Shown: positions 6,357 through 11,868 of the stretch, piece by piece
Position numbering within the stretch: position 1 is the stretch's first letter
Layout of the letters: each line of letters begins with the position of its first letter
Source of the DNA: Gammaproteobacteria bacterium
GTDB lineage: Bacteria; Pseudomonadota; Gammaproteobacteria; Eutrophobiales; Eutrophobiaceae
Direction: 5' to 3'
Assembly (NCBI GenBank): GCA_021773235.1
Contig: JAJFKL010000048.1
Coordinates: forward strand, 44,687-108,686
DNA: 64,000 bases
Position numbers and translations under genes: made by a program
Notes under the pieces: model-generated
What the model was told of the DNA's origin: nothing
What the model saw: only the letters and a program-made list of their open reading frames with translations
Database searches by the model: none

Positions 6357-6920
6357 TTAAGCAGTAACAAAATAGATAATATTCACAACAACGACAATTA
6401 AAATACCTATTGTGATTATTTTGACAGGGCTCTTGTTTTTTATCGTAGGTATTACCGGTACTGAACTCTGTTCATCAGCATCTTTATTATCAGGTTTTGG
6501 AACTTTATCTTTATTTAATTCTTCTTCTGGCTCTGTTTCTTCGAGTTCATCAGCTAATTCATGCTCTCTATTTTCAGAATATAGTCTGCAACACATCTCA
6601 CCAATAAGTTGCTCGCCGTTAGCACCCCAATAGACTTCAACACTTTCAGGTAGGTTGTTTTTATCGATATGGACTGAGGAATTGAATGTGGCCTTCAAAC
6701 TGTTTTCTACAACACCATAACCATAGATATAGAGTAATTCATCCGTTCCGGGAATTTTGATATGTAATTCATCTAGTAAGAGGTTTTGAGGCAGGGGTGG
6801 TTTTGTAGTAATGATGGCATCAATATCCCCGATTGCTTCGCCTTCACCGTGAATCAAACTGTCTTTAAACTCAAAGATGACGGTCTCGCCATCAATCGTA
6901 ACAGAATATTCTTTATCCAT
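6357..6920 (-). CDS. Hypothetical tail-anchored protein (acidic linker plus C-terminal TM helix)
   Basis: 187-aa ORF. C-terminal IITIGILIVVVVNIIYFV helix. No family recognised. Confidence 0.4.
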   Translation of the reverse strand: MDKEYSVTIDGETVIFEFKDSLIHGEGEAIGDIDAIITTKPPLPQNLLLDELHIKIPGTDELLYIYGYGVVENSLKATFNSSVHIDKNNLPESVEVYWGANGEQLIGEMCCRLYSENREHELADELEETEPEEELNKDKVPKPDNKDADEQSSVPVIPTIKNKSPVKIITIGILIVVVVNIIYFVTA

Positions 6921-6995: not shown

Positions 6996-8177
6996 TCACA
7001 ATTCAGCCGATTTTATTTGCTCCTTCATTTGCAATGCAGCAATTGCATAACCGCCATCAGCTGCATCTACAAAATGAAAATGTTCGCCTACTCGGTTGTC
7101 AATCATGCAGGTCATTAAGGCTGAATTTGAGACATGTATTCCGTAGACACATTCTTTATTAGTATATTTTTCTTTTAAATAAGCAACCAATTCTTCACGC
7201 TGCTTTTTTGTGCCCGAAATTACTTGTCGTAAGATACCATCAAATTTTTTGAAATCAGTATTACTAATTAATTCGGACTTATATGATCCCCAAGCTACTC
7301 CCGCGACATTCAATTTAAACGTCATGAATACCCATCCTAAGATATTTTGAATATATAACTTCACCCAATAATTTAAAATTGAAAATGTGCTTTCTTTGTG
7401 TGTTCTGACACTGACTTCATTTTTTAACTTGTTTATGTTGCTAGTTAAACTTAGGCCCGCTTCATGAACAGGTTGGCATTCATCATCAGCCCCATATATA
7501 TGTTGTATCTTTACAATAATATCATTGTAAATTTTTGACTCTTCATCTATTGAAGCTGCGAGAACCTTGACGATCAATGCAATCGTTTCGCCATGCTTGC
7601 TTGGTATGTTGTTCCAACGACATTCCAGGCCAGAGTAATCTGTCTTCGTCTCCTCACCCATATTCTCAAAACGGAATTGTTGCCCTGCTTTATCATCTTT
7701 GATTAGATTTTCTGCATACTCTATACCGCCACCGGAGAACGCAGCTTGAGTATAATGTTCGGACATTCTATAACGAGAAACCAAAACCTCATGTCCTGCA
7801 CTTCTAACAACCGCAATAGGAACAATACCAACTCTCAGGTTAAGACCGAATTGCTTTTCAGCCATGTACTTTGTTGCTATTAATGCTTTTTTTGCTTTTT
7901 CTACAAGACTAGCCGGGATACATAATGATGCTCCATCACCACCAAACATAGAAGGTAACAGAATAAGCGGGGAGATATTCTTTATAGCAGTTATAATTGA
8001 GACCCCTACAATATTAACGGCTTTATATTTTCCTGCCTTTATCGCACCGGTTGAATTCTGGATGTCTGCAGAAACAATCAACCAGTCATCAGGCAATTTT
8101 GAATACTTTGATAGAACAGATACAACTGAAAAATCAGCATGCACCGGGAGTTTCGAATAAAATTCATCTGAAGACAT
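6996..8177 (-). CDS. DUF3095-like protein (nucleotidyl-cyclase/GGDEF-like fold)
   Basis: 393 aa. N-terminal VSADIQNST...FGGDGASLCIP resembles the metal-binding strands of cyclase-fold proteins. Family assignment is from memory. Confidence 0.55.
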   Translation of the reverse strand: MSSDEFYSKLPVHADFSVVSVLSKYSKLPDDWLIVSADIQNSTGAIKAGKYKAVNIVGVSIITAIKNISPLILLPSMFGGDGASLCIPASLVEKAKKALIATKYMAEKQFGLNLRVGIVPIAVVRSAGHEVLVSRYRMSEHYTQAAFSGGGIEYAENLIKDDKAGQQFRFENMGEETKTDYSGLECRWNNIPSKHGETIALIVKVLAASIDEESKIYNDIIVKIQHIYGADDECQPVHEAGLSLTSNINKLKNEVSVRTHKESTFSILNYWVKLYIQNILGWVFMTFKLNVAGVAWGSYKSELISNTDFKKFDGILRQVISGTKKQREELVAYLKEKYTNKECVYGIHVSNSALMTCMIDNRVGEHFHFVDAADGGYAIAALQMKEQIKSAEL

Positions 8178-8306
8178 GCTGAATAATTATTGCAAATGAA
8201 CCGTATTTATACCATAAATTGAAAAATCGATCTGCAAGCACTCAACATTGTGAAACGACAATAGTTAAGATTGATGTAACAATTATAATCCAAACCCGGC
8301 AGACTT

Positions 8307-8320
8307 TTGATATAGATCAA
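8307..8320. promoter_or_regulatory. Perfect FNR/ANR-type box TTGAT-ATAG-ATCAA
   Basis: Exact match to TTGAT-N4-ATCAA in the divergent intergenic region between DUF3095 (start 8177) and DUF1538 (start 8418). Confidence 0.6.
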
Positions 8321-8417
8321 TTAGCTTAATTTTACGAATTTTATACTTTATATATAATGGGTGTCGTATCCAGTTACCCGTAATTGCTGTCAATAATTAT
8401 TAACTTAGAAATAAACC

Positions 8418-10196
8418 ATGCCTATATTAAAACATATCCGATTTGGTGCCTTCGTACGCGAGATTACAATGCACCAACAAGAGATCAGCTATAATGATTT
8501 GGCTCCAGAAATCAAACAAGACCAGGATGGTAATGATTTGGCTTATCGTCCGGGCAAACTTAAAGTGCGCTCAATTGATGTCTATCGTCTGGCACAACCC
8601 TATTTTAAGGTTCGTTTAATCGACCAAATAAAAGCTGTCTTACCATTAGCTGTTTATCTGATTTTATTTCAACTATTGATACTACGTCAGAATGTTACAG
8701 ATTCATGGGTTATTACAGCAGGTTTAATGTCCGTAATTTTTGGACTTATGTTTTTTATTGAAGGCTTAAAAGTTGGACTCATGCCTTTTGGTGAGACCAT
8801 AGGCAATATATTGCCATCAAAGGCGAGACTGGCAACTGTATTATTCATTGTCTTTTTGCTAGGTATAGGCGTTACATTTGCTGAGCCTGCTATAGGTGCA
8901 CTAAAAACAGCTGGCGCAATAGTCAATGTTGAACGTGCACCCTATTTATATTCATTATTAAACTCATGGTCAGAAGTGCTGGTGTTAATGGTTGGTATGG
9001 GTGTTGGTCTTGCCGCGGTTTTGGGAACACTCCGGTTTATTTATGGCTGGAGCTTAAAACCACTGATATACATGTCATTGATACCGACCATTGGTTTGAC
9101 AATCTATATAATGGGCGACAGTGAACTTAGCAAAATATTGGGTCTCGCATGGGATTGTGGTGCTGTAACTACCGGGCCTGTTACAGTGCCTCTAGTACTT
9201 TCACTAGGCATTGGTATTGCCACAGCCGCTGGCAAAGGCCGGTCATCGTTATCCGGGTTTGGCATTGTCACTCTCGCATCATTATTTCCTATCATCGCCG
9301 TTCAAATACTGGCTATTTTTGTTTCCTTTGCAGAAACACCCGAAATGATTATTAGTGAGGCTGCCTCTATCAGCAACTTATCAAACACCTTGAGTTGGCA
9401 CGAAACAACACCTTACGTTGAATTGCTATCCGGTATTCGCGCCATTGTTCCATTAGTATTATTTTTGATGTTTATACTCATTTATATACTTAAAGAGAAA
9501 ATCAAACATCCAGGCACCATTGCTTATGGAATTTCCCTGTCTGTAATAGGTATGATTATTTTCAATGTTGGCCTGAGCTATGGCTTGTCCAAGTTAGGAG
9601 GTCAGTCTGGTGGTCTAGTGCCTGGCGCCTTCACAAAGATCGAGCTTATCAGCGAATCACCTTTATATAACTTTGCATTAGGCATGTCGATTGCGCTTGC
9701 TTTTGCATGGATACTTGGTTTTGGCGCAACGCTGGCCGAGCCGGCATTAAACGCTTTAGGCATGACCGTGGAAAACCTGACTAATGGCGCTTTTAGAAAA
9801 AAGTTATTGATGCACGCTGTTTCGTTTGGTGTTGGCTGTGGTATAGCAATAGGCATCTTTAAAATTATATTTTCCATACCGATCGCCTACATTATTATCC
9901 CCGGTTATTTAATTGCTATCGTTTTGACATACTTTTCAACTGAAGAGTTTGTCAATATTGCCTGGGACAGTGCTGGCGTTACAACAGGCCCGGTAACTGT
10001 ACCTTTAGTGTTAGCGATGGGGTTAGGCTTTGGTGAAGCAGTTGGGGCGATAGAAGGCTTTGGTATTTTATCTATGGCATCAATTGGCCCAATCATTTCT
10101 GTTATGGCTACTGGCTTGTGGATACAATGGAAAGTTAACAAACGCCGAGAACGTGAAGATGAATTAGTTGAATCTCTTGAAGGAGTTGACTCATGA
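8418..10196 (+). CDS. DUF1538-family integral membrane protein (two fused DUF1538 halves)
   Basis: 592 aa, polytopic. The motif AWD(C/S)..VTTGPVTVPLVL..G.G occurs once in each half. The gene is followed by PII-like genes, as is typical for this family (from memory). Confidence 0.7.
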   Translation: MPILKHIRFGAFVREITMHQQEISYNDLAPEIKQDQDGNDLAYRPGKLKVRSIDVYRLAQPYFKVRLIDQIKAVLPLAVYLILFQLLILRQNVTDSWVITAGLMSVIFGLMFFIEGLKVGLMPFGETIGNILPSKARLATVLFIVFLLGIGVTFAEPAIGALKTAGAIVNVERAPYLYSLLNSWSEVLVLMVGMGVGLAAVLGTLRFIYGWSLKPLIYMSLIPTIGLTIYIMGDSELSKILGLAWDCGAVTTGPVTVPLVLSLGIGIATAAGKGRSSLSGFGIVTLASLFPIIAVQILAIFVSFAETPEMIISEAASISNLSNTLSWHETTPYVELLSGIRAIVPLVLFLMFILIYILKEKIKHPGTIAYGISLSVIGMIIFNVGLSYGLSKLGGQSGGLVPGAFTKIELISESPLYNFALGMSIALAFAWILGFGATLAEPALNALGMTVENLTNGAFRKKLLMHAVSFGVGCGIAIGIFKIIFSIPIAYIIIPGYLIAIVLTYFSTEEFVNIAWDSAGVTTGPVTVPLVLAMGLGFGEAVGAIEGFGILSMASIGPIISVMATGLWIQWKVNKRREREDELVESLEGVDS

Positions 10197-10558
10197 GTAA
10201 ACGCAATATCGTTGTATTAACCGATGTAGCATTAATAACGTGCATAATTCAAAAAGGATGCGCAGACACTATAGTAAAGGCTGCCCAAGATGGTGGTGCT
10301 CAAGGTGCAACTGTATTTTATGCGCGAGGCAGTGGCGTTAGAGAAAGGCTTGGCGTGCTCGGAATTGCTGTCGAAGTTGAAAAAGAAATTATCAATATTG
10401 TTGTTGCTACTGATCAAATTGATCGTATATTTGAAAAAATATATCTGGCGGGAAACCTTGATACGCCTGGCATGGGCTTCATGTATGTTACTCCTTTGGA
10501 AAAGGCCGCTACTTACATACCTACAGAAATTGCTGACAAACTTACTACGGAAGTTTAA
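10193..10558 (+). CDS. PII-like (GlnB superfamily) signal-transduction protein
   Basis: 121 aa. beta-alpha-beta/T-loop-like/beta-alpha-beta pattern (ITCIIQKG.AD.IV..A...GA.GATVF.ARG.G...EKEIINIVV). ATGA overlap with the DUF1538 gene. Confidence 0.65.
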   Translation: MSKRNIVVLTDVALITCIIQKGCADTIVKAAQDGGAQGATVFYARGSGVRERLGVLGIAVEVEKEIINIVVATDQIDRIFEKIYLAGNLDTPGMGFMYVTPLEKAATYIPTEIADKLTTEV

Positions 10559-10936
10559 GTGCCTAACAAACTAGAAAATTTGGAAACCATGGGGAACATT
10601 AAATTCTCTAACGACAAATTAATCACCTGCATATTACCAAAGGGCTTGGCTTCGCCAATTTTGAAAAAATTAAAAACTGAAAAAGGAATTGTCAGGACTA
10701 ATCTTAAATCGGCACGTGGCATGGGGAAAATCACACCCCTAGCCTATCGTGGTGCTGGCGAACAAGCGGAAAAAGACATGCTAAATGTTGTTGTAAATCA
10801 AGATGAAGCAGATGATATATTTTACTATATCTATGAAGAAGCAGATATAAACAGACCGCACGGTGGCGTTATATATATGCGCCAACTTGGACCATCAACA
10901 CCCTTTACACTCCCAGACTTGCCAGATGAAGAATAG
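10559..10936 (+). CDS. Second PII-like protein
   Basis: 125 aa. GTG start abuts the previous stop (TAAGTG). Same PII-like pattern (ITCILPKG.A..IL..L....G...........ARG.G...EKDMLNVVV). Confidence 0.6.
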   Translation: MPNKLENLETMGNIKFSNDKLITCILPKGLASPILKKLKTEKGIVRTNLKSARGMGKITPLAYRGAGEQAEKDMLNVVVNQDEADDIFYYIYEEADINRPHGGVIYMRQLGPSTPFTLPDLPDEE

Positions 10937-10950
10937 GTTTGTTGATAAGA

Positions 10951-11868
10951 CTATATTCTATGACACCGAAAGATAACTCCAGCATGAGGATCATTTAAGG
11001 GCGTGCCACCAAAGTAGATAGTGCCATGGTCTCCCAGCATTTCTTCCTCTCTATGTAATCGGATATTTCTCCCATTTGCAAAATAGACAGCCGTTCCATT
11101 TGTGCTATTGTCTTGTAAATGAAAAACCCCATGTCGATAGGTAATCTCCGCATGTGATTTTGAAGTAAAATTTCCATCGACACTAAGATCATTATTGTCA
11201 CCACGGCCAATCGTGCAATGGGTATGCTCTGAATCTAGTCTAATTTGTTTGTCACCGTAATCCAGCAGAAGTATTTTATGAGTTGCATCATCTTCAGCAA
11301 TAGCTGAAGGCAAACTACCGATTCTTGTTACCTCTTCTTCTTCTTCCCATGGGATGCCATAAACTTTTAGTTCACCATCCCAAGCATCAGCTTCTACAGA
11401 ATCAATGAATCGCGCGTTATATTTAAGCTCTTCTGGTAAGGCATCAATACTTTGGCTGCTGGTAAGAATTTCATCCTTTTTCGCAAGGTTGATAATCTGC
11501 TGTGCAATAATGGGAGCTTCACCTATGATCTCCTTACCCCTATACCGCACTGCACCATAATGCCAACCTATTTTGACATGTACTTCGCCGATACTAAATT
11601 TTCCTTGTTCACTGGCCAACTGAAGTGCTTCATGCATCGCTCTTGCTGCCATAGCGGCTTTGACTGGGTTTGGGAATTTACACATAGCCTCATCGCCAAT
11701 TGTTTTGACTACGTCACCATCTAGACTAGACGCTACATCTGATAATATAGCGATACAAGTTTCTATGTTTTGACGTGCAACTACATCACCATGTGTCTCA
11801 TAAATATGCGTACTTCCTGAAACATCTGCATACAATATAGCTAGTTTCTGAATTGTGTCATCCGACAT
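10951..11868 (-). CDS. Class III adenylate/guanylate cyclase domain fused to a C-terminal FHA domain
   Basis: LAILYADVSGST and KTIGDEAM metal-Asp motifs. The C-terminus CTIGRG..NDL.V.....S..HA.I......F.L.D.STNGT is a typical FHA domain. Confidence 0.8.
   Translation of the reverse strand: MSDDTIQKLAILYADVSGSTHIYETHGDVVARQNIETCIAILSDVASSLDGDVVKTIGDEAMCKFPNPVKAAMAARAMHEALQLASEQGKFSIGEVHVKIGWHYGAVRYRGKEIIGEAPIIAQQIINLAKKDEILTSSQSIDALPEELKYNARFIDSVEADAWDGELKVYGIPWEEEEEVTRIGSLPSAIAEDDATHKILLLDYGDKQIRLDSEHTHCTIGRGDNNDLSVDGNFTSKSHAEITYRHGVFHLQDNSTNGTAVYFANGRNIRLHREEEMLGDHGTIYFGGTPLNDPHAGVIFRCHRI

Follow-up and report, generated by a model that had tools for sequence, protein, structure and literature searches.

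What is the role of a membrane protein of the DUF1538 family whose gene runs directly into genes for two small PII-like proteins, with a cyclase-fold gene on either side and FNR boxes nearby? This arrangement lies in a 64,000-nt stretch of GenBank contig JAJFKL010000048.1, here called the window, meaning the whole stretch of DNA that was analysed. The window belongs to contig C43 of a 2.87-Mb metagenome-assembled genome that is 81% complete and was obtained from a biofilm metagenome; its closest relatives in public data, 'Thiotrichaceae bacterium UBA973' and 'marine bacterium B5-7', belong to uncultured Gammaproteobacteria. The answer favoured here, with moderate confidence, is that the three genes encode an FNR-induced, single-chain cation/proton transporter of the UmpAB type that would be gated by a PII-like pair sensing a small molecule, the cyclase-fold genes being lineage-specific accessories.

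A conserved transporter-PII cassette

The cassette (transporter, PII-1 and PII-2) was traced with tblastn and phmmer in nine genome loci, in 80 of ~560 metagenome loci of the fused type, in which both DUF1538 domains form one chain as they do here, and in several long contigs. PII neighbours were counted in the 75 fused-type loci with at least 800 bp of downstream sequence, which span 57–98% identity and form 69 clusters at 90%. Both PII genes follow the transporter gene in 72 of these 75 loci, and the median gap between transporter and PII-1 is -4 nt. L099 is arguably a seventy-third case, its second small gene having scored as PII-1-like rather than PII-2, and the exceptions are L054 and L096. 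The three genes keep together in unrelated genomic contexts. At L054 (5493-6558) the cassette is decayed: PII-1 is truncated after ~50 residues, and a gene for a membrane-anchored GGDEF protein is inserted in the place of the PII genes.

A related arrangement is more widespread. DUF1538 is present in 85 of the 301 genomes sampled in the class (28%), mostly as an UmpA/UmpB-like gene pair, the split type. A gene for a PII-like protein of ~116 aa lies directly after the second DUF1538 gene in 58 of 60 split-type loci, and a ~135-aa CBS-pair gene comes next in 46 of 59, usually with a 4-nt overlap. The same DUF1538-PII pairing is found in loci from Bacilli and Flavobacteriales. Judged by gene order, the window cassette is a variant of this widespread split UmpA/UmpB, PII-like and CBS cassette: it shares the transporter family and the dedicated, divergent PII-like gene directly after it, and it differs in that the membrane genes are fused, the position of the CBS-pair protein is taken by a second PII paralogue, an FNR-type promoter precedes the genes and cyclase-fold genes adjoin them. 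The distribution of DUF1538 is uneven at short range, since the only same-genus genome in the class sample besides that of the window (G161, 100% complete) lacks it; the cassette is thus patchy even among close relatives.

An initial annotation of the window, made from the letters and their reading frames, had proposed that the membrane protein has dedicated PII-like partners, and the near-universal adjacency at both fused and split loci bears this out. Its placement of the five genes agrees with the open reading frame (ORF) map and with Pfam matches (Table 1). The ATGA overlap that it described between the transporter stop and the PII-1 start is present at 10193-10196, and so is the TAA-GTG junction at 10556-10561; only the PII-2 start itself is ambiguous, being either GTG at 10559 or ATG at 10589. 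Because PII-2 homologues are mostly 110-120 aa long and the first ~10 residues are unconserved, ATG 10589 is an equally plausible start. Read in this way, PII-2 may be a 115-aa protein that is separated from PII-1 by a 30-nt gap instead of abutting it.

Table 1. Features at and around the cassette, in window coordinates
Feature	Position	Strand	Remarks
187-aa protein with C-terminal hydrophobic anchor	6357..6920	-	No Pfam match; conserved DUF3095 companion
DUF3095 protein, 393 aa, divergent from the cassette	6996..8177	-	Pfam E 1e-127
Perfect FNR box TTGATATAGATCAA	8307..8320		Putative activator site of the cassette promoter
-10-like hexamer TATACT	8342..8347	+	Read from the sequence, 21 nt past the FNR box
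Fused DUF1538-DUF1538 membrane protein, 592 aa	8418..10196	+	Two PF07556 stretches
PII-like protein 1 (PII-1), 121 aa	10193..10558	+	36.1 bits to Pfam P-II (gathering score 25)
PII-like protein 2 (PII-2), 125 aa from GTG	10559..10936	+	Pfam P-II 19.1 bits, below the gathering score
Class III cyclase-homology domain (CHD) and FHA protein, 305 aa, convergent with the cassette	10951..11868	-	Pfam Guanylate_cyc and FHA
Perfect FNR box TTGATTCATATCAA	11929..11942		61 nt upstream of the cyclase-FHA start codon

A single-chain relative of UmpAB

The membrane protein is a clear member of the DUF1538 family. PF07556 matches it with 362 bits in two stretches, and each half reaches 182-188 bits in the genome search, where the cut-off is 22.6. 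The NCBIfam models UmpA and UmpB (NF041627, NF041628) align over their full length with the two halves, UmpA with 205.6 bits on residues 67-301 and UmpB with 160.8 bits on residues 337-577, so that the N half resembles UmpA and the C half UmpB. Homologues with the fused architecture number more than 8000. A conserved N-terminal extension of ~65 aa, predicted to be cytoplasmic, is specific to the fused clade. The motifs AEP and (W/Y)D(S/C)GxVTTxxxTVP are present in both halves, where the second takes the form (W)D(C/S)xxVTTGPVTVP, and at least 95% conserved in split-type proteins too, and UmpAB itself shares AEP and D-x-G-x-V-T-T-x-x-x-T-V-P with the window protein. The carboxylates of these motifs (AEP Glu, WD Asp) are conserved in both halves and are common to the split and fused clades. 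In comparison with UmpAB, the window protein is distinguished by its single chain, its N-terminal extension, its lower scores against the two models and one difference of motif that is taken up below.

In everted vesicles, UmpAB of Halomonas zhaodongensis acted as a Na+(Li+,K+)/H+ antiporter, and E. coli KNabc regained tolerance of Na+/Li+ and of alkaline conditions when it carried UmpAB (PMC5484666). The cloned fragment ended after umpB, and any PII partner fell outside that study (PMC5484666). UmpAB also serves as a salt-adaptation marker in cable-bacteria papers. The initial annotation had stated that it knew of no function for DUF1538; the published antiporter, and the match of both halves to its NCBIfam models, supply one. 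As far as sequence relationship can tell, the 592-aa protein is most likely a monovalent-cation/proton exchanger, which is the best available assignment and is not secure for the fused clade.

The two PII-like proteins

PII-1 falls within the PII superfamily (PF00543) by its Pfam score, and PII-2 is a clear paralogue of it (hhalign against the PII-1 family: probability 99.6%, E 2.7e-24). A PII-1 profile matches only canonical PII chains in the PDB (best E 1e-6), and a PII-2 profile also finds PII proteins (best E 1e-5). Across these profile searches and searches with single sequences, PstA-like chains appear only at E ~0.2. SbtB is absent from the PDB matches of both profiles at E<=1, and the adjacent membrane protein is DUF1538, not SbtA. 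An SbtB-like or PstA-like identity was rejected, as the profile searches give it no support. The two proteins are not ordinary GlnB or GlnK either, in that they do not combine the conserved ATP/2-oxoglutarate site with the T-loop Tyr51; two ordinary GlnB/K genes lie elsewhere in the genome.

The T-loop of the PII-1 family is nearly invariant (G-x-G-V-R-E-R-L-G) and shorter than the canonical one. The glycines of the T-loop base and B-loop, equivalent to G35, G37, G87 and G89 of GlnB, are kept, as is the equivalent of K58, and a loop D-T-P-G-M-G(-F) stands instead of the canonical G87-D-G-K90. The putative effector site has thus been remodelled in comparison with canonical PII.

The presence of two paralogues recalls NifI1 and NifI2, two related PII proteins that are encoded in tandem and function together as a hetero-oligomer. 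The best PDB match of the PII-2 profile is 9p1x_H, with 9p1x_G also listed, and this entry, known here by no more than the depositor's name, contains two different P-II family chains and is reminiscent of NifI1/NifI2. The match is a lead, not a result, for mixed PII-1/PII-2 trimers. The resemblance to NifI1/NifI2 consists in the tandem of two paralogous PII genes; the homology is at superfamily level, and the target there is nitrogenase, not a transporter.

An FNR-type promoter upstream of the cassette

The two FNR boxes that the initial annotation had reported on either side of the cassette both match TTGAT-N4-ATCAA perfectly. Such perfect sites number six in the window against 0.33 expected from shuffles, and 40 in the genome against ~7.5 expected. 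The other boxes of the window precede hemN, the gene for a class II ribonucleotide reductase, a PhyH gene and a pyrroloquinoline quinone (PQQ) cassette, and for this reason the boxes are regarded as a real anaerobic regulon. The genome encodes two FNR-type regulators with a C-X2-C-X5-C...C cluster and an E--SR recognition helix, as well as one CRP. The FNR paralogues are located at C34:9718-10485 and C18:18036-18761; perfect boxes lie ~180-380 bp upstream of both (C34:9342, C18:17856), which suggests autoregulation.

Upstream of the cassette, the box is perfect in L001-3, L017/18, L005, L020/23 and L032 and has one mismatch in L161. It occurs in nine of 79 fused loci, from five lineages, against 0.55 expected. 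Every box-bearing lineage has a -10-like hexamer (TATACT, TATAAT, TATATA or CATAAT) at a fixed spacing of 21 nt. The centre of the box lies ~41 nt upstream of the inferred transcription start, which in the window would fall near 8354-8355, and the geometry is thus that of a class II FNR site directed towards the DUF1538 operon. The box-bearing lineages differ in their flanking genes, so the box appears to have been maintained with the cassette. Site position and cognate regulator together point to a class II FNR promoter. The proposal of low-oxygen induction therefore gains support for this lineage from the FNR orthologues and from the conserved spacing of box and hexamer. FNR control as a trait of the whole family was rejected, because the box is confined to these nine loci and has been lost in L021 (91% identity).

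Proposed mechanism

In the mechanism that we favour, the 592-aa protein would be a one-chain version of the two-subunit UmpAB/DUF1538 secondary transporter, made from one operon together with the two paralogous PII-like proteins. By analogy with GlnK-AmtB and SbtB-SbtA, the PII-like proteins would assemble as trimers, possibly mixed, whose conserved T-loops would attach them to the cytoplasmic side of the transporter. Docked PII would then open or plug the transporter according to the small-molecule effector that it has bound. Docking of this kind, with the T-loop acting as a 'valve plug' on the cytoplasmic face, is a known mechanism of PII-transporter pairs (bioRxiv 10.1101/2023.08.10.552651). 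The class II FNR-activated promoter would cause the operon to be made when oxygen is scarce, like hemN, the class II ribonucleotide reductase and the PQQ genes. The DUF3095 and degenerate cyclase-FHA proteins would be lineage-specific additions outside the conserved machine, through which a nucleotide signal may be fed in.

The arrangement resembles SbtA-SbtB and AmtB-GlnK in that the gene for the transporter would be co-transcribed with a PII-superfamily gene. It is unlike them in that the membrane protein has no similarity to SbtA or AmtB, that the PII profiles miss SbtB, that two PII paralogues are present here rather than one, and that no RuBisCO was found in the host genome at 81% completeness.

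A number of observations weigh against this mechanism. First, the one line of evidence that places the cassette among PII-gated transporters is the order of its genes, which is conserved and translationally coupled. When fusions of PII with DUF1538 were sought in nature, with a concatenated query scored on its PII part, one ORF came up. Second, the equivalents of R38, Q39, K90, R101 and R103, which bind ATP and 2-oxoglutarate in GlnB, are missing from the PII-like proteins, the C-terminal Arg among them. Third, the membrane protein falls far short of the equivalog cut-offs for UmpA (490 bits) and UmpB (500 bits), and is a family member rather than an UmpAB equivalog; both of its halves read VTTGP, as does the fused clade, where the split type reads VTTST. 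The functional assignment of UmpAB itself comes from a single heterologous-complementation study. Fourth, the AlphaFold2 model of the transporter is of moderate quality (predicted local distance difference test, pLDDT, 69.5; predicted template modelling score, pTM, 0.73), and neither the model (best E 0.1, template modelling score <= 0.17) nor the sequence finds a match in the PDB. Fifth, most fused-type lineages have no FNR box, including most of the marine fused clade, and in a search for transcripts the sequence was found only in DNA metagenome runs, with no RNA match.

Two lines of enquiry were closed in the course of this comparison. The fold of the transporter was left unassigned, as no PDB match by model or sequence was available for a mechanistic analogy. 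The ORF found in the fusion search, P0245, encodes 553 aa that combine a P-II domain with DUF1538. It comes from a metagenomic contig of 2.2 kb, and is either a rare fusion or a frameshift artefact. As this lone ORF is possibly an artefact, the fusion search was dropped as evidence for an interaction between PII and the transporter.

The transported substrate

The substrate may be other than Na+, K+ or H+, for example an anion, bicarbonate or a small metabolite, with the antiport of UmpAB being a side activity or specific to the split type. We consider this unlikely, while allowing it appreciable weight. The similarity to UmpAB is at family level only, and two positions of the conserved motif, in each half, depart from the split-type sequence; because of this difference, and because Halomonas UmpAB is presumably a split-type member, the substrate of the fused clade may differ. 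The predicted fold is unlike any solved transporter, known cation/proton antiporters included. Six CPA-type Na+/H+ exchanger genes are already present elsewhere in the genome, so the cassette would be a conditional addition to them. Against these points stands the sole experimental datum for the family, which is cation/proton antiport (PMC5484666), and the membrane carboxylates conserved in both halves suit cation/proton coupling.

Gene neighbours bear on the question from both sides. They are diverse across the family and indicate no single substrate: the genes upstream of the 60 split-type loci are a mixture with a few P-type cation ATPases, Na:Ala symporters and QRPTase, and Pfam identifies P-type cation ATPases in three of 60 upstream and one of 59 downstream neighbours. 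P-type cation ATPases nevertheless adjoin the cassette in several loci, which speaks for a cation. Large genes (~900 aa) lie next to DUF1538 cassettes in several unrelated loci (L161, L159, L130, L141, L150 and L152), and Pfam identifies the one in L161 (3349-6036, minus strand) and those on either side in L159 as P-type cation ATPases. The ATPase neighbours are a weak hint of cation homeostasis. An attempt to read the substrate from the split-type neighbours did not settle it, the upstream genes being heterogeneous and giving at most this weak hint.

Bicarbonate can be considered separately. The initial annotation had drawn an analogy with SbtA and the uptake of dissolved inorganic carbon, which is unlikely to hold: the search of the 81%-complete genome yielded no RuBisCO, and the transporter has no similarity to SbtA. 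A carbon-concentrating role was rejected as unlikely on the same ground of a missing RuBisCO, and this also tells against bicarbonate as the alternative substrate.

Cyclase-fold genes beside the cassette

A further question is whether the cyclase-fold proteins encoded on either side of the cassette make the ligand of the PII-like proteins. The upstream gene encodes a DUF3095 protein that the initial annotation had called cyclase-like, and structure comparison supports this description. Sequence and profile searches of the PDB with DUF3095 gave no match. An AlphaFold2 model built from 24 sequences (pLDDT 91.8, pTM 0.89) matches class III cyclase domains in the PDB with Foldseek probabilities of 0.98-1.0 to AC9, AC8, Cya2, Rv1900c and CyaC, and is thus predicted to have the class III cyclase fold. 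The model superposes on the tandem soluble C1-C2 domains of AC9 and AC8 (E 2e-4, ~480 columns) and on the single cyclase domains of Cya2, Rv1900c and CyaC (probability ~1.0, root-mean-square deviation 3.5-4.7 A). DUF3095 is therefore predicted, with high confidence in the model, to be a single-chain tandem of two cyclase-homology-fold domains, reminiscent of the C1-C2 arrangement of mammalian adenylyl cyclases but without recognisable resemblance to cyclases in sequence. Both metal-Asp positions are occupied by invariant residues, D38 and D81, and the protein may be an unrecognised nucleotidyl cyclase. The C-terminal half carries the conserved motifs NTDFKKFDGxLR and HxHFxD...GGY. A full-text search found no paper on DUF3095.

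DUF3095 adjoins the cassette only in relatives of at least ~85% identity. It is divergent from the cassette in the window and co-directional with it in L161, so that it stays beside the cassette across an inversion. Further relatives of 85-91% identity, in which the two share contigs, probably have the same neighbourhood; in the more distant L162 and L163, DUF3095 and the cassette are unlinked. Homologues of the 187-aa companion adjoin DUF3095 in L001 (75% identity) and L161 (77% over 124 aa), and this protein may be a membrane-anchored partner of DUF3095.

The class III cyclase-FHA gene that the initial annotation placed convergently downstream was recovered by Pfam, with Guanylate_cyc at 36.1 bits (cut-off 21.9) and FHA at 44.3 bits. 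Its best PDB match is Ma1120 (E 4e-10), to which it aligns with the metal Asp residues (D15, D59) and the Lys (K55) kept; unlike Ma1120, it has lost the transition-state Asn and Arg, with GEAPIIAQQ in place of GDxVNxAxR, and the specificity Asp is a Glu. The PF00211 domain is thus present with an incomplete set of the six residues that mark a class III nucleotidyl cyclase, and on its sequence the protein is probably a member of the fold rather than an autonomous enzyme. The genome encodes a canonical CHD-FHA paralogue with GDAVNVAARM at C26:77051-77956 (minus strand). A degenerate and a canonical protein of this kind would be compatible with an asymmetric heterodimer in which one site is active and the other regulatory. 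The cyclase-FHA gene lies beside the cassette only in L001-3 and L021, and these are the only loci in which it and DUF3095 both flank the cassette. Its FNR box, TTGATTCATATCAA, is retained in the same loci, with TAACCT 22 nt downstream on the minus strand. L017, which is 83% identical and has the same pilW-DUF4124-PilZ-hemN-PhyH synteny on the right-hand side, has neither cyclase-fold gene and also lacks this box.

Class III cyclases of other kinds recur beside the cassette. Neighbours were counted with a profile made from Pfam-verified cyclase domains, and GGDEF neighbours were excluded; an iterated cyclase profile had been discarded because it drifted into GGDEF domains. In six of 69 dereplicated lineages (457 kb of flank), counting the CHD-FHA gene of the window as one, the fused cassette has a class III cyclase gene of unrelated architecture beside it, where 0.5-0.9 would be expected at one to two cyclase genes per Mb (Poisson P 9e-6 to 4e-4, in a post hoc test with an assumed background rate). 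The 934 kb around the 60 split-type loci hold no cyclase gene. The architectures vary, with CHASE2-CHD proteins in L005 and L019 and a GAF-GAF-PAS-CHD protein in the L051 cluster. A convergent FHA-GAF-CHD gene lies right after PII-2 in L066 (10172-11800, minus strand) and in L049 (10486-11460, minus strand), whose transporters are 77% identical. It has the same position and the same FHA and cyclase content as the cyclase-FHA gene of the window, in reverse domain order, and the recurrence of FHA and cyclase proteins with differing domain orders is notable.

The initial annotation had interpreted the PII-like proteins as cyclic-nucleotide receptors, with the flanking cyclase-fold proteins making the gating ligand. 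SbtB, a PII-like protein of this description, binds cAMP and related nucleotides. The excess of architecturally unrelated cyclases at fused loci, set against none at the split-type loci, the persistence of DUF3095 across the inversion, its predicted cyclase fold with both metal Asp positions invariant, and the presence of FNR boxes on both the cassette and the cyclase-FHA gene all agree with this interpretation. It is nonetheless improbable in our judgement. No cyclase lies close by in approximately 90% of fused-type lineages or in any of the sampled split-type loci, and L017, with the same right-hand synteny, does without both cyclase-fold genes. The CHD of the window has lost its catalytic Asn and Arg, its canonical paralogue sits elsewhere in the genome, and the PII-like profiles miss SbtB. 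The enrichment, for its part, was tested after the fact and on an assumed background. Of the survey that the initial annotation had proposed for DUF1538, the linkage to PII genes held and the linkage to cyclases was seen above chance at fused loci and at no split-type locus. Gating by cyclic nucleotides is accordingly left as a weak proposal, in which the neighbours of the six lineages count for it and the restriction of the flanking genes to close relatives, the lost residues and the lack of SbtB resemblance count against it.

A more elaborate version joins these elements, and we give it a low probability. In this version, a hetero-oligomeric PII gate would read a cyclic nucleotide supplied by DUF3095, as a new single-chain cyclase of the C1-C2 type, and by a heterodimer of the degenerate cyclase-FHA protein with its C26 paralogue, in which the former would be the regulatory half. 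The FHA domains encoded beside the cassette would dock on phospho-Thr, either in the PII T-loop or in the N-terminal extension of the transporter. If true, this would constitute a pathway outside cyanobacteria that leads from low oxygen through cyclic nucleotides and phospho-Thr to PII and ion transport.

It is very unlikely, finally, that the PII-like proteins act elsewhere, for instance on soluble enzymes or on the cyclase-fold proteins, and not on the membrane protein: canonical PII proteins do have many soluble targets, and only one possible natural PII-DUF1538 fusion was found, but the near-obligate, translationally coupled adjacency persists across phyla and rearrangements while other neighbours vary, and is typical of the subunits of one complex, as in amtB-glnK and sbtA-sbtB.

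Significance

PII proteins are among the most widespread signal processors, and to our knowledge the only PII-transporter partnerships that are understood mechanistically are AmtB-GlnK and SbtA-SbtB. The favoured mechanism, a transporter of the UmpAB type gated by its own PII-like proteins, would extend this set. The pairing is a further instance of a known PII-transporter principle, and it appears to be undescribed, as no paper on DUF1538 or UmpAB found by full-text search mentions PII, and the PII literature that was sampled deals with AmtB-GlnK and SbtA-SbtB. The DUF1538/UmpAB family occurs in several other phyla besides this class, and almost always with a divergent PII-like gene of its own. 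The window adds to this a clade in which a PII paralogue stands in for the CBS-pair protein, a conserved class II FNR promoter, and what is so far the sole hint that the family may be connected with nucleotide cyclases. If confirmed, the pairing would be the third between a PII protein and a transporter, and would provide a handle on the regulation, and perhaps on the true substrate, of a transporter family that has no solved fold.

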